The position numbers and the translations under genes are program-made. Shown here in pieces: positions 6,489-22,475 of a stretch of DNA of 64,000 bases. The notes under the pieces were generated by a model that did not search any database, had not been told where the DNA came from, and saw nothing but the letters and a program-made list of their open reading frames with translations. The stretch lies in assembly GCF_024700885.2 (NCBI RefSeq), contig NZ_CP117014.1. The stretch is one strand, 5' to 3'. Within the stretch, counting starts at the first letter, position 1. The number at the start of each line of letters is the position of its first letter. This DNA comes from Escherichia coli. GTDB lineage: Bacteria; Pseudomonadota; Gammaproteobacteria; Enterobacterales; Enterobacteriaceae.

Positions 6489-6895
6489 AGAAGATGATTT
6501 TTATCGCGGCATTGTTGGTGAATATCCAACAAGTGCATGCTTCAGCAGCTATTGTAGCCTCTACCGCCGCGACTACGGCTGCTGTAGCTGCTGCGAACTC
6601 TGCGAATATCGCAAACCAACAGGCACAGCGTGCTGCTAATGCATCAGCCAGCGTTCACTCAATCACCATTAAGAGCAGTAAGCAAAATCTGGGATTCATA
6701 ACGTGCGGCACGCGTTCTAATGAAGCTGTAGGTTCACTTGGATGTACGGTATATGGGGGTAGTGAGAATAGAGAAATTCCATGGAAAACGTGGCCCGGAT
6801 ACGTTCTTGGCTCGAAGCTCCCGGCCAGTTATGAAGTAAACGCCGTATCGTTTGATCACTATAACGGCGTGGCAACGGTCTATTTTGCATATTGA
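6485..6895 (+). CDS. Small secreted/periplasmic protein (signal peptide)
   Basis: N-terminal MKKMIFIAALLVNIQQVHA followed by an Ala/Thr-rich region; no lipobox cysteine. Confidence 0.4.
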   Translation: MKKMIFIAALLVNIQQVHASAAIVASTAATTAAVAAANSANIANQQAQRAANASASVHSITIKSSKQNLGFITCGTRSNEAVGSLGCTVYGGSENREIPWKTWPGYVLGSKLPASYEVNAVSFDHYNGVATVYFAY

Positions 6896-6902
6896 GGCCC
6901 GC

Positions 6903-7436
6903 ATGAAATTCTCCAAATTTTCTGAGTTGGTGAATCGTATTTTGTTGAATCGTATTTTGTCCAACAACCACAGCCATCGTCGCGATATGGATGTAACGAT
7001 CGTTGTTCATTCGCCTGGCAGCATTGGTTCAACACCCTCAGTTGAGGTTCAGTCAATTCACGCTGGTTTTGATTGGGATTCCGGGAAAGTGCTGATTTTC
7101 CCAGCACAGCCACTGACCACTCTAACACCAGAACAGATTACTGATATTACTGATAGTGTGCGCAAAGGTCAGTCCTGGCACGCATATCAGGAATACAAGA
7201 AGCATAAAGAGCAGTTGGAAAAATTATCGATTGAACTTGATACCGCAAAACAGCGCATTGCAGAGCTGGAGAGCAATCGCGCGGCGCTGGCGGCGGAGCA
7301 TGGTATTCAGATTGCAATAAATGAACTGCTTGCTCTGGCCCCGCGTCTGGATAAACGAGCGGTGGATGCACTCTCTGTGGCTGTGGAGCACCTGTGTAAA
7401 CTGATTAAGAAGGAGGCAGTCAGTGAGCAAAATTAA
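6903..7436 (+). CDS. Ead/Ea22-like coiled-coil protein
   Basis: ELESNRAALAAEHG motif; ATG at 6903 with RBS chosen over the upstream alternative start. Confidence 0.4.
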   Translation: MKFSKFSELVNRILLNRILSNNHSHRRDMDVTIVVHSPGSIGSTPSVEVQSIHAGFDWDSGKVLIFPAQPLTTLTPEQITDITDSVRKGQSWHAYQEYKKHKEQLEKLSIELDTAKQRIAELESNRAALAAEHGIQIAINELLALAPRLDKRAVDALSVAVEHLCKLIKKEAVSEQN

Positions 7437-8865: not shown

Positions 8866-10386
8866 ATGACCACTATTACCAAAGAACGTATTGAATTGTT
8901 CATTAAAAATCCGCTTGAAAACGGGCTTACCCGTGGTGAACAAATGGAACTGGCACGGATTGCGCTGGCATCGCTGGAAGCAGATCCAGTTAAACGAGTT
9001 AACTCAGATCAGATGCGCCGAGTCTGCTTAGAAGCTAATCGCCATTTAGATAAATATGACGCGATGGCGAAAGAGGTAAATAAGTTGCTTGGACGCATCG
9101 CCCCGCCAGCGCCGGTAGTGCCGGAAGAAGCAACTCCGGAAAACGTAGAAATGCTCTCTGGCTATGTTTCCACGTACAAATTAACCGATAGCGAGCGCGA
9201 TATTGCTGCCGAAATATGGAACGCCTGCCGCACCGCCATGCTTCAGTCCGGAAACTTTCGGGAAAGCAAGAATTCGTCAACCAATAATTTTCGGGAAATC
9301 GCGGAAACGTCAACCAACTATCCGGTAATTCCTAGTGAGGTGTTGTCAGCAATCCTGAAGTTTGCCAGAGTTCGTGCCGATTTCGATGATTTTGACGGTG
9401 ACAGGCGAGGTATCGGTGATTGTCTGGATGAGGCCGAGCAAGAGCTTATCGTTACCATTAACAAATATGCCAGTCAGTTGGCAGCAGAACCGATAGCGAC
9501 TAATGACGTTCGAGAGCAAACAGCCGTTCCGCCAATACAGGCTGATGTCGCGCAAGCAATTGAAAATCTCAAGCAGAAGTTAGTGGAATGCAATCGCTAT
9601 AACTACTGCGCAGATGCAGTTAAAGGCGTAGAGGATGCCAGCCGCGTCTTGGCACTCCAAAATCAAAATATGTCAGCACCGGTAACGCCGGAGGCCATTG
9701 AAAACGCAATTGAATATATCCGCAGTATCGCTTTTCACATCGATGAAGACGATTACCACGGCAAGCATATTGCGTATTTCATGCGACAAGCATTGGCCTG
9801 GCTGGAAGGGCATTCATGCAGCGACGACAGGCTGGGTAAGGCCGACAATCAACCCGCATCTGGTAACCAGTCTGCCGAATCCAATCGCGGTAATGAGTGG
9901 ACCGGCAATCCTGATATTGATAACGCCATCATCATGCTCGACCGCATAGATACGGCGGAAAGTTGCGATGATGACCGTATTGAGGCCGTTAAGGCTGTGT
10001 TGCGTAGACTGGCAGGCAACTATCCGGATATTCCGGATAGTTCGGTGCCAGCGCCAGGAAAGGGCGTCACCGGTGAACGTATCCGCATTAAGCCGCATGT
10101 TTATCGCGAACTGGTTAACCGTCTCCACGATACAGCGATCAAGTGTGCTGGCACCCAGCAATTACGAGAAAGAATTAGCCGTGTTTTGGGCGACGTTATT
10201 ACACCAGATCATCATAAACAAGCCGAGAAAAGTGGCCTGGAAAGGTGTCGCCTTGAGGCGGCATTAAACATTAAGCCGGGGCATACGCTTGGCATTATTG
10301 ATGCACTATTGGTTCATAAGATGGCCAGGGCTTTATTGCCGCTGGTGGCTGAAAAGCATGAGGTGGACCATGCCAACGAAAGCTGA
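8866..10386 (+). CDS. Hypothetical 506-aa modular protein
   Basis: N-terminal module shared with 8180 ORF; C-terminal PHVYRELVNRLHDTAIKCAGTQQLRERI module shared with 1139-1750 protein; RBS AAGGAG. Confidence 0.45.
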   Translation: MTTITKERIELFIKNPLENGLTRGEQMELARIALASLEADPVKRVNSDQMRRVCLEANRHLDKYDAMAKEVNKLLGRIAPPAPVVPEEATPENVEMLSGYVSTYKLTDSERDIAAEIWNACRTAMLQSGNFRESKNSSTNNFREIAETSTNYPVIPSEVLSAILKFARVRADFDDFDGDRRGIGDCLDEAEQELIVTINKYASQLAAEPIATNDVREQTAVPPIQADVAQAIENLKQKLVECNRYNYCADAVKGVEDASRVLALQNQNMSAPVTPEAIENAIEYIRSIAFHIDEDDYHGKHIAYFMRQALAWLEGHSCSDDRLGKADNQPASGNQSAESNRGNEWTGNPDIDNAIIMLDRIDTAESCDDDRIEAVKAVLRRLAGNYPDIPDSSVPAPGKGVTGERIRIKPHVYRELVNRLHDTAIKCAGTQQLRERISRVLGDVITPDHHKQAEKSGLERCRLEAALNIKPGHTLGIIDALLVHKMARALLPLVAEKHEVDHANES

Positions 10387-12674: not shown

Positions 12675-12782
12675 TCCCAGCAATTGCAAGACTGCATCTC
12701 GAGGATTTAAGGCACCAAGAAGTGGTATTCAGCATCATTAAAACCTATAATTGCGTACACATAACGAGCACACGAGGTGTTT

Positions 12783-13004
12783 ATGCAATCCATTAACTTC
12801 CGTACCGCGCGCGGCAACCTTTCTGAAGTGCTCAACAATGTTGAAGCCGGGGAAGAGGTTGAAATCACCCGCAGAGGCCGTGAGCCAGCAGTAATTGTCA
12901 GCAAGGCTACTTTTGAAGCCTACAAAAAAGCGGCGCTGGATGCCGAATTTGCATCCCTGTTTGACACCCTGGACTCCACCAACAAGGAACTGGTTAACCG
13001 ATAA
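12783..13004 (+). CDS. phd: Phd antitoxin
   Basis: [73 protein letters not shown] matches my memory of P1 Phd across the full length. Confidence 0.85.
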
Positions 13005-13384
13005 TGAGGCATATATCACCGGAAGAACTTATTGCGCTTCATGATGCGAATATAAGCCGCTACGGCGGCCTGCCGGGAATGTCAGATCCGGGTAGGGCAG
13101 AGGCCATTATCGGGAGAGTTCAGGCCAGAGTTGCCTACGAAGAGATCACCGACCTTTTCGAAGTCTCCGCCACCTACCTGGTGGCTACGGCGAGAGGGCA
13201 TATATTCAATGATGCCAATAAGCGTACCGCGCTAAACAGTGCGCTGCTATTTCTACGCCGTAACGGTATACAGGTATATGATGATCCCGTGCTGGTGGAG
13301 CTTGCAGTGGGGGCTGCAACTGGTGAAATCCCCGTATCTTCAGTAGCGAAAAAACTACGTGAACTATATGGTTCCAATATTTGA
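13004..13384 (+). CDS. doc: Doc toxin (Fic-fold kinase)
   Basis: 126 aa with [10 protein letters not shown] Fic-type motif; near-identical to recalled P1 Doc; ATGA overlap with phd. Confidence 0.85.
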
Positions 13385-13385
13385 A

Positions 13386-13415
13386 AAGAAGCCCGCTCAA
13401 CCAGGCGGGCTTCTT
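13386..13415. terminator. Bidirectional rho-independent terminator between convergent doc and 13420 gene
   Basis: AAGAA-GCCCGC-tcaaccag-GCGGGC-TTCTT hairpin with flanking A/T runs. Confidence 0.55.
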
Positions 13416-13419
13416 ACTA

Positions 13420-14514
13420 TCACTCAATGATTTTTTCTGCTGTCAGCCAGCTAATTTCTTGCCTGTCTTTCGGCGGTTTTAGCATGTGGGCGTATTCAGC
13501 GACATTCTCCCACGGAATTGTTTTTGCCCACTCAACGATAGCATTGTGATCTGCAGTGAAGAGTGGAATGGTGTGCGATTTCAACCATTCTAATGTCGTG
13601 ACGCCATGTTTTTTGGCGTGGTGCTGCGCATGATGCCGGGCTATCACTCGTAATGGTATTGTCCATTCACTACCATCAGGCATCGAAAAGCGCATTGTCT
13701 TCGGCATATCTGATTCAAGAACAGCCTCCCTAATACCAGGGAACTCACCAAGAATCATACGACGATAGTCATCACTATTTCGCCCGCCATACCTTTCGGC
13801 AAAATGATCAAGATATTCTTGGGTAATAAATGGTGAATCCTCCGCACTCAGCTTAATGGCTTTATATACACCACTCGGATTATCTTCAGCTAAAGCACGT
13901 CCATGATGTGAATCATAAAAAAAGCCTATTTCCTCTGGTGACGGAATTGAAGTGAGCAATATGCGTGAATCACCACTAGTCATGCTTGCCCACACAATGC
14001 TGTATGCCCGATCGCTGATATGTGCGGAATCCACAATAATGAATAAAAGATGGTCGGCGTAGTGACCTGCAATGCTATCTTCATAGTTAAGGCGGAAGTT
14101 ACAAAAGCACATTCCCCAAAATTCATTGAACATCAGACCGCTATCACCGACCTTAAAATACTCAATGATAAAAGGTTGTTTTTTCAGCAATGCCTCCCAA
14201 CATTGCCACACATATGCAACAATTCCTCTTTTGCAAACATTTGATTTTGGATAAACAATTACTGTCCGGGAATCAGGATACATAATCGTATAAAGGGTAC
14301 TAATAACAGCAAGCACTTGCGGTCGTCCGATCCCATACGGAGTGGTGACAGTAGCTTTTGCATTATTGGGCTGTATAGCTTCAACAATTTGTTGTTGCTG
14401 GTGGCTTAAATCAATATCAAACAATTCTTTTGCTGCCAGTACCCAATTGTCTTTATATTTCTCCACCAGCGACAGCCAGCGCGGATCTTTATAAATATTG
14501 CTCTTAGTCGCCAT
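13420..14514 (-). CDS. Terminase large-subunit (PacB) paralog with degenerate Walker A/B motifs
   Basis: Aligns with PacB (19603-21111): DPRW, SHQQQQI, FYDSHH, SPF, EYGGR shared; Walker A GHGTGKS replaced by PYGIGRP, Walker B ILDEAS by IVDSAH; divergent shorter C-terminus. Start set at MATKSNIYKD (ATG 14514). Confidence 0.6.
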   Translation of the reverse strand: MATKSNIYKDPRWLSLVEKYKDNWVLAAKELFDIDLSHQQQQIVEAIQPNNAKATVTTPYGIGRPQVLAVISTLYTIMYPDSRTVIVYPKSNVCKRGIVAYVWQCWEALLKKQPFIIEYFKVGDSGLMFNEFWGMCFCNFRLNYEDSIAGHYADHLLFIIVDSAHISDRAYSIVWASMTSGDSRILLTSIPSPEEIGFFYDSHHGRALAEDNPSGVYKAIKLSAEDSPFITQEYLDHFAERYGGRNSDDYRRMILGEFPGIREAVLESDMPKTMRFSMPDGSEWTIPLRVIARHHAQHHAKKHGVTTLEWLKSHTIPLFTADHNAIVEWAKTIPWENVAEYAHMLKPPKDRQEISWLTAEKIIE

Positions 14515-15271
14515 CTGCCACTTCCTTAACTTCTTCTTTGGCCTGTTCTGCAATCGCCGCACGGCATTTCGCCCTGGCTGTAGCGATTGCTTCAGCTCGC
14601 ACATCGTCTGGAATCGTTGACGTGATATACATATCCAGTTCTTCGGCACGGAATACTGTTTGGTCCAGATATTCGCGTAGCATCCAGGTAAATTCGAAAT
14701 CACACGCGATAATCTCTGCGCTACCTTCTGCACCATTTGGGAAATGAATAAATGCCTGTTTAGCCAAACCGATAACACGACATGCGGTTGCCAAAACAGC
14801 GACAACTAGGTTTACATTTTCACACGCTACGGGCTGGTTAACGCCGGAGATTACTCCATTTAACTGTCGGTTATATGGAAGGTAGTTTGAGATGCGTTCT
14901 ACGCGCCATGTGCCAGTCAGGCTGCCATTTTTAAATATAATTGGTGTAACGGATAGCCCAAGCTCGCGTATAAGTCGTTGCGCTATAGCAGGATCATTAA
15001 ACAGGTCTAATGCTACACATTCGAAAGACTGCGCAAGGGCAAACAGTTCTTCCAGAGAGTAGTCTTTGCCCCTGGCGGTGATGTAACGACGAACGCCGCT
15101 GTCTGCATCACTCCATATAGCTACGCCATGCTCTTCATTCAGCTCTTCATTAAAGCCGAGATACGTCATGATAGTGCGTTCAATCGTGTCAAACGGCAGT
15201 GACATGTCGGCGTTAACAGCCACCAGCAGGCCATTACGCAAGCGGTATTGAATTGTTTTAGTGCTTTCCAT
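14504..15271 (-). CDS. Hypothetical 255-aa protein
   Basis: ORF tightly coupled within the six-gene minus-strand operon. Confidence 0.4.
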   Translation of the reverse strand: MESTKTIQYRLRNGLLVAVNADMSLPFDTIERTIMTYLGFNEELNEEHGVAIWSDADSGVRRYITARGKDYSLEELFALAQSFECVALDLFNDPAIAQRLIRELGLSVTPIIFKNGSLTGTWRVERISNYLPYNRQLNGVISGVNQPVACENVNLVVAVLATACRVIGLAKQAFIHFPNGAEGSAEIIACDFEFTWMLREYLDQTVFRAEELDMYITSTIPDDVRAEAIATARAKCRAAIAEQAKEEVKEVADGD

Positions 15272-15277
15272 GTCAAA

Positions 15278-15718
15278 TCACTCCACAACAAACCAGTCAC
15301 AGGCCAGCAGGTCGCCAACTGAAGGCACCCACGGAACAACTACACCTTGTGCATTTTTTAAGGCGAAATAAGCACCATACGGAACGAGGTCGCCGGGGAA
15401 ATATCCCTTAATGGCTTCCATTCGTGCCGGGTACTGTCCTTCAGGAACCAGCCAGCAGAATTGGTTTTCGCCGTTCCACCCGCGTCGAGCAACTTTCTTG
15501 CCTTCCTTCAGCCACATCAGCGCGTCTGAAAAGTCGGCTGCTTCAAGGTCGATTTCTTCTTGCTGGGTGGTGATGCCACCAGCAGAAATAGTTACGCTCC
15601 CGGTAAGATTAATCATCACGCCGTTGTCATCCGTAATGATGACCGTGGTTCCATTTTTTTTGTGAGCTTTGTATTTGGGACGGAACTTAAAAAGCTCTTT
15701 CGTTGCCATGTTATTCAT
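15278..15718 (-). CDS. DUF2829-like protein (Tad2-like candidate) with N-terminal extension
   Basis: C-terminal half FSDALMWLKEGKKVARRGWNG...VPWVPSVGDLLACDWFVVE fits my recollection of the DUF2829 signature. Confidence 0.45.
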   Translation of the reverse strand: MNNMATKELFKFRPKYKAHKKNGTTVIITDDNGVMINLTGSVTISAGGITTQQEEIDLEAADFSDALMWLKEGKKVARRGWNGENQFCWLVPEGQYPARMEAIKGYFPGDLVPYGAYFALKNAQGVVVPWVPSVGDLLACDWFVVE

Positions 15719-15732
15719 AGTCTTTTCTCTGC

Positions 15733-16227
15733 TTATAACTTTTCGTACTGAAGCGGTGAACGCTTAATTTCAAAGTGGCCTTCCGATGTGCTACCAAAGC
15801 CACCAGCACCACGCTCCGTTTCGTTGAGTTCCTCAACCTCGACTAGTGAGACTTGTTCAACACGCTCAAAAATTCCTTGCATGACAGCCATTCCAGGCTT
15901 GAGACAAACGCCTTCCCCGCCGGGATCAGTAATCAGTTTTGCCATGATTTCGCCGCGATAATCGGAGTCGATAATTCCTACGCAGTTAGCCAGGCGAGTA
16001 TGTTTTTTGCAGCCCAATCCTGATCGCGGATAGAGTTTCAGACACCAGCCGGGCGGGATCTCCATAGCCAGTCCGGTATACACCCACCAGCTTGAGGAAA
16101 TTGCACCATTGCTATCGACGCATGGTTTTATTTCAACAGCCTCAAAATCCATCGCCGCCGATCCGGAGGTGGCATAAGCTGGAAGTTTTGCTGCCGGATG
16201 TAGGCGTTTCACTTTTACGTAAATCAT
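15733..16227 (-). CDS. dut: dUTPase (trimeric dUTP diphosphatase)
   Basis: Motifs SAAMDF, PRSG, GIIDSDYRGEI and RGAGGFGSTS. Confidence 0.75.
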   Translation of the reverse strand: MIYVKVKRLHPAAKLPAYATSGSAAMDFEAVEIKPCVDSNGAISSSWWVYTGLAMEIPPGWCLKLYPRSGLGCKKHTRLANCVGIIDSDYRGEIMAKLITDPGGEGVCLKPGMAVMQGIFERVEQVSLVEVEELNETERGAGGFGSTSEGHFEIKRSPLQYEKL

Positions 16228-18143: not shown

Positions 18144-18295
18144 GAAACTATTTAACCTCTATATACAGATAACGCTACGCGAAAAATATAAAAATGACAG
18201 GGTAGCTATAAGTTAATTTTCAAGATTCAAGCCTTTGATTCGAGGCGCGTATTTTCAGTGATGTCAATACTGATCATCTACCCATAATTATAGCC

Positions 18296-18327
18296 TAACT
18301 TTAAATAATGCCAATTATTTAAAGTTA
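18296..18327. other. rox-type recombination site (14-bp inverted arms, 4-bp spacer GCCA)
   Basis: TAACTTTAAATAAT-GCCA-ATTATTTAAAGTTA, perfect arms; arm begins ATAACTT-like as in loxP; 150 bp upstream of the recombinase start. Confidence 0.8.
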
Positions 18328-19584: not shown

Positions 19585-19604
19585 GCCCCGCATCGCGGGG
19601 CTTT
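19585..19604. terminator. Bidirectional terminator between convergent 18538 gene and pacB
   Basis: GCCCCGC-atc-GCGGGGC followed by TTT. Confidence 0.5.
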
Positions 19605-21111
19605 ATATATCCAGATCCGGCATTTCGATATCCGCCAGAACCTGATCTCGGAAAGTTGCCATTTCGGCACCAATATCTTCATTAGCAGGCACATAGTCCA
19701 CCAGCATAGTGAAGCAGTAGGTATCCCATCGGTCAGGCGATTTGATGTTTAGCTTTTGCCGCATGTGCTCTTTGCGCATCATCGCCATTTTCCCTTCTTC
19801 ATTCAGTAAAAAGGGGATTTTTGACGCTTGCTCTGCCGTTTTAGGGTCACTGTCTATCCGCATACGCCCTGACTTTATGGCATCACGCGCCATAATGTTT
19901 GCGTAGGCACGCTGATTAACAAATCGCTCCCTGTCTTTGTTCGCAAACATGGGTTTTCCCCACCGAATACGTACCGGGTTCGCACCACGACGCACCAACT
20001 GCGCACACGTATCAGAACCAAAACCATCAGCATCAACCGCGATTGTTATATTCGGGTATTTTTCCGGCGTACATTCGTTATATATGAAGTCAGCAAAGGC
20101 CAATGGGTCCATAGTGCCAGGCATCTCCATTACCTTAAAGTTAACAACGCGCCGCTTATCCCTGTGACCTGATACCTTGCAGATGTTGAGGACCGACTTA
20201 TCTCGCCCATTACCAACGTCAGCCGTTGCCACCCATCCCCAGTTTTTCTCCAACAACACCTTGCGGCGAGCAGAGCGATCGCATTCATCACGACCAAGCA
20301 AATAGCCGTTAATTTCTCGTGGGAACTGACCAAGCACCTTGACCATGTACTCAATAGAATCGCGCCCACCATATTCCAGAAGCTTCTCCTTGATGAATTG
20401 TGGTGTGACGAACGGTGATTCTTCCGAGTTAAGAACAATTGCTGTCCAGATCCCTTTCGGGTTGTCTGGGGTTTTTGCTCGAGAATGGTGCGAATCGTAG
20501 AAATAACCACTTGGCCTTGTTGGCTGGGATAGCATCAACATCCGGTTATCTTCTTCAGTAAGAGCACCGGTCATTACGCCGATCGCCTTATCAGATATAC
20601 CAGATGCTTCATCCAGAATTAGAAGCAAATGTGCCGCGTGTTCCCCCGCCAGCGCTTCTTCGTTGCCGAGTCGATAACCTTTGCAGAGAACTTCCCAAAT
20701 CCCCTTACGGGAGCGCTCATAAAACATGGTGTCAGAGAGGACAAAATAGGTCTGCAACCACCCATGACGCTTAACTGCATTCGCCCAATACTGTTTAACG
20801 TATTTGAATACGCCTGTTTTTACCTGGCCTATCTTGTTAGCAACAATGATGACACGGGCATCGGGGAACAGGATCATAAAAATCAACAGCAACATCGCGG
20901 TAAGGGACGACTTCCCCGTTCCGTGTCCGGACGTGACGGTCGTCCTACTCCCCGTTTCCTGCACTGACTGAATGATCTGCTGCTGCTGGTGGGAGGGGAA
21001 CATCCCAAAAATATCGACTACAGCCTGGGTAAAGTTGTAGCGGTATTTGATTACCATATCGCGCCAGCGTGGATCGCTGGTGACGCATTTAATCTTGCGC
21101 CCGCCAGCCAT
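19603..21111 (-). CDS. pacB: Terminase large subunit (PacB-like)
   Basis: 502 aa; Walker A SGHGTGKSS, Walker B LLLILDEAS; downstream of pacA with overlapping stop/start. Confidence 0.75.
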   Translation of the reverse strand: MAGGRKIKCVTSDPRWRDMVIKYRYNFTQAVVDIFGMFPSHQQQQIIQSVQETGSRTTVTSGHGTGKSSLTAMLLLIFMILFPDARVIIVANKIGQVKTGVFKYVKQYWANAVKRHGWLQTYFVLSDTMFYERSRKGIWEVLCKGYRLGNEEALAGEHAAHLLLILDEASGISDKAIGVMTGALTEEDNRMLMLSQPTRPSGYFYDSHHSRAKTPDNPKGIWTAIVLNSEESPFVTPQFIKEKLLEYGGRDSIEYMVKVLGQFPREINGYLLGRDECDRSARRKVLLEKNWGWVATADVGNGRDKSVLNICKVSGHRDKRRVVNFKVMEMPGTMDPLAFADFIYNECTPEKYPNITIAVDADGFGSDTCAQLVRRGANPVRIRWGKPMFANKDRERFVNQRAYANIMARDAIKSGRMRIDSDPKTAEQASKIPFLLNEEGKMAMMRKEHMRQKLNIKSPDRWDTYCFTMLVDYVPANEDIGAEMATFRDQVLADIEMPDLDI

Positions 21112-22475
21112 TAATCATCCTCCGGCGGTTCTATCGCGATATCATCATCTCCGGCGTCATACCCTGCATCAGATGCATCATAATCACCGTAAATTTCAGC
21201 CGTTGCCGAAGGGTCAATATCCAGCTCTTCGTCGTTGGCCTCGAATTCTCCAGCTTTACGCTCGCCATTGCGGTCGTAATCTCCGCACCCCAATTCTTCA
21301 ACAATGGTTGCCACATCCGCCCGGCGCTCTGCCAGCCATTGCGGATGGTTAGCCTGAAGCGTTGCAAACTCCCTTGCCTCTTTGTCCAGCTGTTCATCAT
21401 CAACATCATTGACGTCAGAAACAGGTGGTTCGAGAAGAGTGATAGCTTTCGCCGCGCGCGCCGCGAGGATAGCCGGGACGCTGACACCCTGGCGCTCGAT
21501 GTATTCAGCAACACCGATATCATCCAGTTCCTCGCGCTCACGCATACGTATAGCGGCGGCGATAACTCTGGCTGCGCGTGCGTCAGCGCCAATGCGATAT
21601 TCAATCTCTTTGCCACGCTGTTCGGCCTGTAGGCGTGCTAATTCGAGTTTTTCTCTGGCCTCAGCCTCTTTGAATGCTTGCTGGCGAGCGCTCTGACGAA
21701 GCTTTTCATCCCCCTGTCGCAGCTTTTGTTCGGACTGATATATAGCTGCCAACCTACTGATAAAATCATTCATGTAGTAGGCCGCGTCACTGATTAGACC
21801 GAGAAGGCGCTGCCCAGGGTGCATTCCTTCTGGCTCTTTATCGCCCAAGGCGTCTATTTCCGCCTGTAGACGTTCGGCCTCCTGATCAACAATGCTTTGA
21901 TACTGAAGTGCGCGCTCTTGCGCCATTTGAATTGCTAACCGCAGGTGTTCTTCTGCGCCGTTCTTCATCATATCGCGAGCCACATTCGTAGTTGGCAATG
22001 TGGCACGCTGCACAGCACCGTCAGGGATCATTGCAGAAGATCCCTCAATTTTTGGGGCGTTTTTATCTTCTTCGGGGATCATTTTCGCCATTTTTTCGCG
22101 CAATGATCTCCTGACAGATTCTTTTATCTCATTGTTATTATTTGAATTATTTTCATGATCCGAAGTTTTCTTTCTCGGCATACTTCGGAAAGAACCTGCG
22201 CCCTGCGAATTGTCAATTTCTGTAAATTTTGTTTTTTCTGCACCCTCTTCCAGCTTTTTTGTTGCTCTTCCCGCCCGTTTTTTTTCAGGTGATTTGGTGC
22301 TTTTTTTTGTTGTCTTTACCTGCGACCGCACCTCATTTTTTTTCATATTGAGATGCTTTCTGGCTGTATTGAAGCTAAGGCCATGCTCCTCACAGTATTC
22401 CTTTACAGTGATCCCTTTTTCTTCACGCAACGCTATAAAGCGGGCGCGGTGCTCCTCCCAATTAACCAGACTCAT
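21111..22475 (-). CDS. pacA: Terminase small subunit (PacA-like)
   Basis: 454 aa, N-terminal HTH-like and Lys/Glu-rich region; position immediately upstream of pacB; GATC cluster inside. Confidence 0.6.
   Translation of the reverse strand: MSLVNWEEHRARFIALREEKGITVKEYCEEHGLSFNTARKHLNMKKNEVRSQVKTTKKSTKSPEKKRAGRATKKLEEGAEKTKFTEIDNSQGAGSFRSMPRKKTSDHENNSNNNNEIKESVRRSLREKMAKMIPEEDKNAPKIEGSSAMIPDGAVQRATLPTTNVARDMMKNGAEEHLRLAIQMAQERALQYQSIVDQEAERLQAEIDALGDKEPEGMHPGQRLLGLISDAAYYMNDFISRLAAIYQSEQKLRQGDEKLRQSARQQAFKEAEAREKLELARLQAEQRGKEIEYRIGADARAARVIAAAIRMREREELDDIGVAEYIERQGVSVPAILAARAAKAITLLEPPVSDVNDVDDEQLDKEAREFATLQANHPQWLAERRADVATIVEELGCGDYDRNGERKAGEFEANDEELDIDPSATAEIYGDYDASDAGYDAGDDDIAIEPPEDD
22026..22160. 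other. Candidate pac site (cluster of Dam GATC hexamers inside pacA)
   Basis: Five GATC sites within 135 bp (22026, 22039, 22077, 22105, 22157), far above chance; P1 pac is a cluster of TGATC(A/G) elements inside pacA. Confidence 0.35.

Follow-up and report, generated by a model that had tools for sequence, protein, structure and literature searches.

Few phage enzymes are as conserved or as well studied as the large terminases, which are also a main target of pattern-recognition immunity in bacteria. Regulation of an active paralog is a common role of pseudoenzymes, ring-shaped packaging ATPases are poisoned by inactive subunits, and proteins of satellites such as the Staphylococcus aureus pathogenicity islands (SaPIs) and phage-inducible chromosomal islands (PICIs) bind or replace the small terminase of their helper phage. 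In the 64,000-nucleotide stretch of Escherichia coli DNA studied here (contig NZ_CP117014.1 of assembly GCF_024700885.2, "the window" below), the minus-strand gene at 13420..14514 encodes a 364-amino-acid paralog of PacB, the large terminase of phages P1 and D6. Around this gene the DNA shares 96.7% identity with the P1-related phage-plasmid D6 (Escherichia phage D6) and 97–100% with many E. coli and Salmonella plasmids of ~90 kb. Our analysis supports the view that the paralog still has the PacB ATPase fold but neither the Walker A lysine nor the Walker B acidic pair, and that a foreign domain stands where the nuclease would be. Binding, and not the packaging of DNA, is probably its mode of action; what it may bind, and with what effect on packaging, we infer from the evidence weighed below.

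The window contains its own comparators. Its functional large terminase, PacB (minus strand, 19603..21111; 502 amino acids), has both Walker motifs, A and B, and the nuclease domain intact and matches PHROG 2, terminase large subunit (E 8e-40); PacA, of terminase small subunit type, is encoded at 21111..22475 on the same strand (PHROG 1711 terminase, E 2.8e-184). BLASTP aligns residues 7–259 of the paralog with residues 10–264 of PacB at 96/258 identities (37%, E 6e-57), which bears out the claim of an earlier reading made from the letters alone (the sequence-only reading) that the N-terminal ~250 amino acids align with PacB. The degenerate ATPase-like domain thus delimited comprises residues 1–259 (13738..14514). 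At its Walker A position (residues 58–66, 14317..14343) TPYGIGRPQ stands where PacB has SGHGTGKSS, with arginine for the lysine and proline for the serine/threonine, and the longer pairing of PacB TSGHGTGKSS with TTPYGIGRPQ leaves the replacement of GHGTGKS by PYGIGRP as it was first described. The Walker B position (residues 157–165, 14020..14046) reads LFIIVDSAH against LLILDEASG in PacB, with valine for the aspartate and aspartate for the glutamate; here the loss of the motif stands, but the earlier pairing of ILDEAS with IVDSAH was one residue out of register, since the gapless alignment sets LLLILDEASG against LLFIIVDSAH. Could the catalytic residues have survived at shifted positions? 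A regular-expression scan of the whole protein found no GK[ST], [AG]xxxxGK, DE or hhhhD[DE] anywhere in the paralog, so that this objection fails.

The remainder of the comparison agrees with this. The match between the PacB family profile and Sf6 gp2 extends through the nuclease domain, which the paralog lacks: its tail gives a profile-profile probability of only 0.06% against the PacB nuclease domain, no RNase H-like nuclease is present, and the protein ends at residue 364. The nuclease is therefore replaced by an unrelated tail, as the sequence-only reading proposed, but this tail comprises residues 260–364, or ~105 amino acids, and not the ~150 first estimated. An AlphaFold2 (AF2) model of the whole paralog has a predicted local distance difference test score (pLDDT) of 94.8 and a predicted template modeling score (pTM) of 0.89, and its top Foldseek matches in the Protein Data Bank (PDB) are Sf6 gp2, T4 gp17 and the P74-26 ATPase domain, with TM values of 0.63–0.65 when normalized to the isolated ATPase domain. 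BLASTP and Foldseek together thus place an ASCE-type ATPase domain homologous to TerL in the paralog. Over its whole length the protein matches PHROG 5902 (E 8.6e-165), and it matched nothing in Pfam, NCBIfam or PADLOC. From these substitutions we infer that the paralog would be unable to bind or hydrolyze ATP in the canonical way and would lack ATPase activity.

Loss of the catalytic motifs is a property of the whole clade and not of this allele. We aligned six paralog lineages with 21 PacBs, and a seventh paralog (from Citrobacter) was treated in a separate alignment. SGHGTGK[ST] and [DE]E[AG]S are kept in 21/21 PacBs, down to 23% identity, and the coupling (C) motif S-x-P-T, which was assigned in PacB by position only, is present in nearly all (SQPT in most, with the threonine at ≥90%). 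The catalytic motifs are lost in 7/7 paralog lineages. Their Walker A region reads TTPxGIG followed by variable residues, the exception being a Klebsiella protein with swapped domain order (below) that reads GSGTGTTT; the Walker B aspartate position is non-acidic, being V, T, A, M, V, I and P across the lineages; and the C-motif threonine is replaced by serine or proline (SIPS, SAPS, SAPP or SKPS, with a one-residue insertion). An arginine conserved in PacB has become glutamate in the five D6-type paralog lineages. Among the 53 columns with ≥90% conservation in PacBs, 23 survive in five or all six of the paralogs, including QQ, GxFYDSHH and LGxFP, a pattern that fits retention of structural or interaction surfaces without catalysis.

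The paralogs are monophyletic (neighbor-joining bootstrap 97/100, seven lineages) and sister to the enterobacterial and Vibrio PacBs, which points to a single old duplication, since they form one clade. Between alleles the dN/dS ratio (NG86) is ~0.10 in both domains (0.010/0.095 and 0.011/0.100), and the paralog is under purifying selection and not in decay. Clade-wide loss of catalytic residues with the fold kept, under purifying selection, is what characterizes pseudoenzymes, and the gene would accordingly encode one: a PacB motor-domain copy joined at residue 260 to a small accessory domain. Within the clade the N-terminal domains are 43–76% identical to one another, and family members range down to 48%; among the aligned PacBs, the majority (the closer ones of enterobacterial and Photobacterium type) are 57–99% identical to the window PacB. 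The isoelectric point (pI) of the ATPase-like domain is 5.7–6.8 in 5/6 lineages versus ~8–9.5 for enterobacterial PacBs, and five basic positions conserved in PacB are lost from it. This acidity and the lost basic positions argue against a DNA-binding or translocating role, and the suggestion that the gene is a domesticated DNA-binding module is disfavored on these grounds and because the tail family is also acidic (median pI 4.4).

The tail itself (13420..13737 on the minus strand, residues 260–364 plus the stop) belongs to an unnamed family that is elsewhere usually a free-standing phage protein of ~100 amino acids. An exhaustive phmmer search with residues 256–364 as query (E ≤ 1e-3) matched 225 representative clusters, most of them free-standing proteins of that size, and the tail also matches the C-terminal part of PHROG 17928 (E 2e-13). 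The family so defined is a widespread small phage domain of ~90 amino acids with near-invariant positions P32, A37, A41, T60, F64, W74, A75, W80 and W101; it has no name, no Pfam entry and no fold match in the PDB. The free-standing members are found in strings of small genes on one strand, as is typical of accessory or early regions in phages. Gene 35 of Cronobacter phage JK004 (our locus L006, 4001-4297) is one of these and lies downstream of a DnaB-type helicase gene with one small gene between, and a free-standing tail-domain gene is likewise found downstream of a DnaB-type replicative helicase gene in a Salmonella plasmid (H221), both being P1-like elements. In a metagenome contig (L016, 5001-5294) a free-standing member is set among nucleotide-metabolism genes, two genes upstream of an NMNAT-Nudix and NAMPT pair for NAD salvage; pairs of this kind are reported to work against NAD-depleting defense. 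Fused members include Xanthomonas phage coiled-coil proteins that end in the tail and are encoded upstream of recombinase, exonuclease and SSB genes, and one protein with a Lar-like restriction-alleviation domain. When the window allele is compared with a 64%-identical allele, nucleotide identity rises from ~50–65% to 93–100% at about nucleotide 780, the domain boundary, and because of this jump we conclude that the tail has been exchanged as a module by recombination.

The ATPase-like domain can also stand without this tail or behind it. A Citrobacter freundii plasmid (NZ_CP114569.1; L020, 3974-4765) encodes a tail-less clade member of 263 amino acids that reads TTPSGIGCKH and FICPNANS. A Klebsiella michiganensis contig (L019, 8001-8741 and 8738-10384) has the tail domain first and the PacB-like ATPase-type domain second; a Tn3-family transposase gene, inserted on the opposite strand, cuts this fusion short. 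Since tail-less and tail-in-front versions exist, the dead ATPase-like domain appears to be the constant functional unit. In its P1-like plasmid the C. freundii gene is upstream of mat and overlaps the stop codon of a gene for a Ref family nuclease, and the K. michiganensis fusion has a Ref-type RecA-dependent nuclease gene and an AbiH gene nearby.

How widespread is the full-length gene? By tblastn against PLSDB, a full-length homolog is present in ~162 of the 759 plasmids that contain PacB, with 33 at ≥95% identity, 10 at 60–80% and the rest at ~51%; in 13/13 full-length records listed, the same record has a second match that we took to be its PacB. The present allele occurs in 35/5426 complete E. 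coli genomes, always on plasmids. The sequence-only reading called such a second terminase copy unusual, and this holds in that no description of a catalytically dead large-terminase paralog was found in the literature searched, but the gene is no one-off, since about one fifth of the P1/D6-like plasmids in PLSDB have a full-length copy. The reading frame, whose disruption in relatives would have spoken against a functional gene, is intact in the plasmids and phages that were fetched and translated, except for 813R1, whose copy is truncated, and one poorly assembled plasmid; the latter (NZ_CP031917.1, with a shortened coding sequence) was not counted as a disruption, because its assembly has several other frameshifted genes. 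Database labels for the protein vary among "hypothetical protein", "terminase large subunit" and "DNA packaging protein". A word-indexed protein search was too insensitive, as it returned 7 matches for the paralog and only the query itself for the protein P0019.

Neither D6 nor P1 itself has the gene. Where D6 has 313 bp that contain pdcA (D6 6643-6955), the window has a 1.19-kb segment (13342-14530, the paralog with its terminator), with break points in the 3′ ends of doc and isaA. The ~51%-identity versions belong to P1-type elements and occupy a different site, between ssb and hxr-ddrB-ddrA-darA (the Dar anti-restriction operon), where they likewise lie directly 3′ of an isaA homolog and overlap it. 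In P1 itself the same slot holds IS1 and isaB; we considered whether isaB is a remnant of the paralog and rejected this, as tblastn in P1 finds pacB only. One paper describes a P1-like plasmid in which two open reading frames (ORFs) with no known function interrupt isaA and replace isaB.

In the window the isaA-like gene (14504..15271, minus strand; "similar to P1 gene isaA" in the D6 annotation) encodes an acidic protein of 255 amino acids (pI 4.7, PHROG 2326) and is translationally coupled to the paralog, whose ATG (14512-14514) lies inside the last isaA codons; the isaA stop is at 14504-14506 and the overlap is 11 nucleotides. A good Shine-Dalgarno sequence, AAGGAAG, is read at 14521..14527 on the minus strand, 6 nucleotides 5′ of this ATG. 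An alternative frame that starts with TTG (13420-14805, minus strand; 461 amino acids) runs over isaA in another frame, and an extended start is used in one metagenome record (P0002, 438 amino acids, "Terminase large subunit"); the ATG at 14514, which is backed by alignments of homologs and by the ribosome-binding site, is the start that we prefer. An identical coding sequence in plasmid NZ_CP074704.1 is annotated in RefSeq as WP_000201932.1, "hypothetical protein". The overlap of isaA with a following paralog gene recurs in the D6-like and P1-like contexts inspected. IsaA is found in P1/D6-type phages only and is the paralog's constant upstream partner, yet it is present without the paralog in D6, SJ46, RCS47 and P1; in SJ46 the order is ssb, a gene for a protein whose C-terminal half the D6 annotators likened to the DUF2829 protein, then isaA. 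It has no domain in Pfam, NCBIfam or PADLOC and no match to any solved structure, and it is dispensable in P1 (PMC10695390). We also asked whether IsaA and the paralog might form a second small/large terminase set, and rejected this because IsaA resembles neither PacA nor any solved structure.

On the minus strand the order of genes is that for a cre-like recombinase, two small ORFs, dut (15733-16227), a Tad2-like (DUF2829) gene (15278..15718), isaA and the paralog. The Tad2-like gene (Pfam PF11195, E 9.5e-23), which dut precedes, lies directly upstream of isaA and so two genes upstream of the paralog in the same putative operon; its RefSeq name in a sister plasmid is "Thoeris anti-defense Tad2 family protein", and it is a probable homolog of the anti-Thoeris sponge. 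A promoter scan of 13.2–18.6 kb found only one strong site on this strand, a near-consensus sigma-70-like site at 18287-18314 (TTGGCA, 16 nucleotides, TATAAT) upstream of the cre-like gene, and a hairpin terminator with an 11-bp GC-rich stem (AAGAAGCCCGC / GCGGGCTTCTT) and a T-run lies at 13386..13415, 5 nucleotides past the paralog stop, between the convergent paralog and doc genes. Because the sole strong promoter precedes cre and the hairpin follows the paralog, cre through the paralog look like one operon. The P1 C1 operator consensus is absent from the window, so D6-type regulation is not readable from the sequence. The paralog is not in the packaging module, pacA-pacB being at 19603-22475. 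On the plus strand the upstream genes humD, phd and doc are recognizable P1/D6 genes, and the phd-doc toxin-antitoxin pair (12777-13384) converges on the paralog; some sister plasmids (74%-coverage matches) have the paralog cassette and lack phd-doc. A 506-amino-acid ORF at 8866-10386 on the plus strand, with mosaic matches to PHROGs of unknown function (phrog_60, 14306 and 21459), was tried as a PacB candidate and set aside, since it is unrelated to the paralog and the real PacB is that at 19603..21111.

What might a dead copy of the packaging motor do? The reading that we tentatively place first, at rather less than an even chance, is that the protein is a non-catalytic mimic of the PacB ATPase domain that binds the partners of PacB and modulates or poisons packaging by P1-family terminases, with IsaA as its partner. 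Such a mimic would compete for PacA, for neighboring PacB subunits in the packaging ring or for the portal, and the terminase affected could be the phage's own, as a control of timing or fidelity, or that of a co-resident or superinfecting relative; the translationally coupled IsaA would act with it. A packaging role takes first place because the usual target of a pseudoenzyme is its active paralog and because PacB is found alongside wherever this was checked. Several points weigh against it. The paralog is accessory, present in ~21% of elements, its region is non-essential in P1 (PMC10695390), and it lies apart from pacA-pacB in accessory or anti-defense neighborhoods. Its slot in P1-like elements is downstream of C1-controlled (C1-repressed) ssb promoters, which implies that it is expressed early there, unlike terminase, whose function is late. 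All enterobacterial PacB lineages, their own included, are at much the same distance (33–38%) from the paralogs, and the paralog-PacB alignment shows no hint that the paralogs co-evolved with any one PacB. Dominant-negative inhibition of its own terminase would also be costly to the phage, and the interaction itself is a proposal.

The second reading, somewhat less probable than the first, is that the dead domain is an anti-defense decoy, imitating the terminase surface that is sensed by host immunity, for example by STAND NTPases of the Avs type. Early production would let it occupy the sensor or cause it to mis-assemble while leaving it inactive, possibly with the help of IsaA and the tail. 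We rank it second because all of the neighborhood and evolutionary-tempo evidence points there. The gene shares its putative operon in the window with the Tad2-like gene (identified by its Pfam match and RefSeq name, above), and in P1-like elements it sits between ssb and the Dar anti-restriction operon, where the C1-controlled ssb promoter probably drives its early expression; the Tad2 and Dar neighbors back the idea circumstantially. According to a preprint, Tad2 is present in 93% of D6-group and 56% of P1-group phage-plasmids (10.1101/2025.09.12.675607). The distribution of the paralog is patchy and its tail has been exchanged exactly at the domain boundary, its N-terminal domains diverge more among themselves than most PacBs do from the window PacB (43–76% versus 57–99%), and its acidic tail family is found among small early-type genes, once fused to a Lar-like domain and once beside NAMPT and NMNAT-Nudix. 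This neighborhood evidence is, however, circumstantial, the paralog has no similarity to a known anti-defense or defense family in Pfam, NCBIfam or PADLOC, and the known anti-Avs proteins, a DNA ligase and a Smf-like protein, are unrelated to it. In the Avs3-terminase structure the sensor reportedly contacts the ATPase and nuclease active sites, which are exactly the parts that the paralog is missing, and a terminase look-alike could equally trigger the sensor. The fully specified form of the idea, in which an inert look-alike made early from an anti-defense operon blinds Avs-type receptors while the tail or IsaA prevents their activation, is in our view unlikely; if true, it would be the first case of a phage that defeats pattern recognition with an inert mimic of the pattern itself.

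It is less likely still that the terminase-like domain is only a scaffold and the tail the working part, directed at a host or phage DNA-replication or recombination factor and having nothing to do with packaging or with recognition of terminase. The neighbors of the relatives suggest such a role: free-standing tail genes near DnaB-type helicase genes (Cronobacter phage JK004 and Salmonella P1-like plasmids), the Xanthomonas phage gene for a tail-ended coiled-coil protein upstream of recombinase, exonuclease and SSB genes, the position of the cassette after ssb in P1-like elements, and the presence of Ref-type RecA-dependent nuclease genes next to the Citrobacter and Klebsiella relatives. Tail-less dead ATPase-like domains persist alone, however (Citrobacter, 263 amino acids, and P0007, 266 amino acids), purifying selection is as strong on the N-terminal domain as on the tail, and fusion of the two domains in both orders suggests that they act together.

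That the protein is still an enzyme, with a non-canonical nucleotide site or some other activity in place of Walker chemistry, seems to us highly improbable. The P-loop glycines G61 and G63 and a QQ adenine-recognition-type motif are conserved, some lineages have an acidic residue at the catalytic glutamate position, and in P0004 and P0005 a Lys-Thr pair is shifted by one residue (GIGQKT); but the lysine, serine/threonine and aspartate positions vary by lineage (R/Q/H/E, P/K/T/A and V/T/A/M/I/P, respectively), which argues for relaxed constraint and not for a new active site, and the loop of the window paralog is without any lysine, serine or threonine. The notion of a decaying, functionless duplicate, which the lost motifs and the gene's dispensability (it is absent from D6 and P1) might suggest, is hardly credible given a dN/dS of ~0.1, full-length copies in ~160 plasmids and in 35/5426 complete E. 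coli genomes, intact reading frames in the copies that were translated, an old monophyletic clade with N-terminal domain identity down to 48%, and a confident AF2 model.

A conserved and selected paralog, enzymatically dead as judged by its sequence, in anti-defense neighborhoods of about one fifth of the E. coli and Salmonella P1/D6 phage-plasmids, offers a handle on how a phage may regulate or sabotage a packaging motor through an inactive subunit, or on how it may evade recognition of an indispensable protein. It would also assign a first partner to the long-unexplained P1 gene isaA.

Compared with described systems, the paralog is closest to PacB of P1 and D6 and, through it, to the TerL family of Sf6 gp2, T4 gp17 and P74-26 TerL. 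It shares with PacB the ATPase fold (37% identity over ~255 residues), the N-terminal helices, the QQ motif, GxFYDSHH and the lid region; unlike PacB it has no Walker A lysine and serine, no Walker B Asp-Glu pair, no C-motif threonine and no nuclease domain, and it is acidic, accessory and not adjacent to pacA, whereas PacB is basic and essential. It resembles pseudoenzymes of the regulator or decoy class in having an active homolog, clade-wide catalytic loss and purifying selection, with regulation here a proposal; a published example for a phage large terminase was not found in the literature searched. With the Tad2 and Dar anti-defense genes of the P1/D6 group it shares an operon or an adjacent position and a patchy, mosaic distribution, but unlike characterized anti-defense proteins it has no sequence or fold similarity to tie it to them, and an anti-defense role is suggested by its location. 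The interference proteins of SaPIs and PICIs offer the nearest parallel in concept, the redirecting or blocking of packaging through binding to terminase, as proposed for the paralog; theirs target or imitate the small subunit and are encoded by satellites, whereas the paralog copies the ATPase domain of the large subunit and is encoded by a phage-plasmid beside its own terminase.

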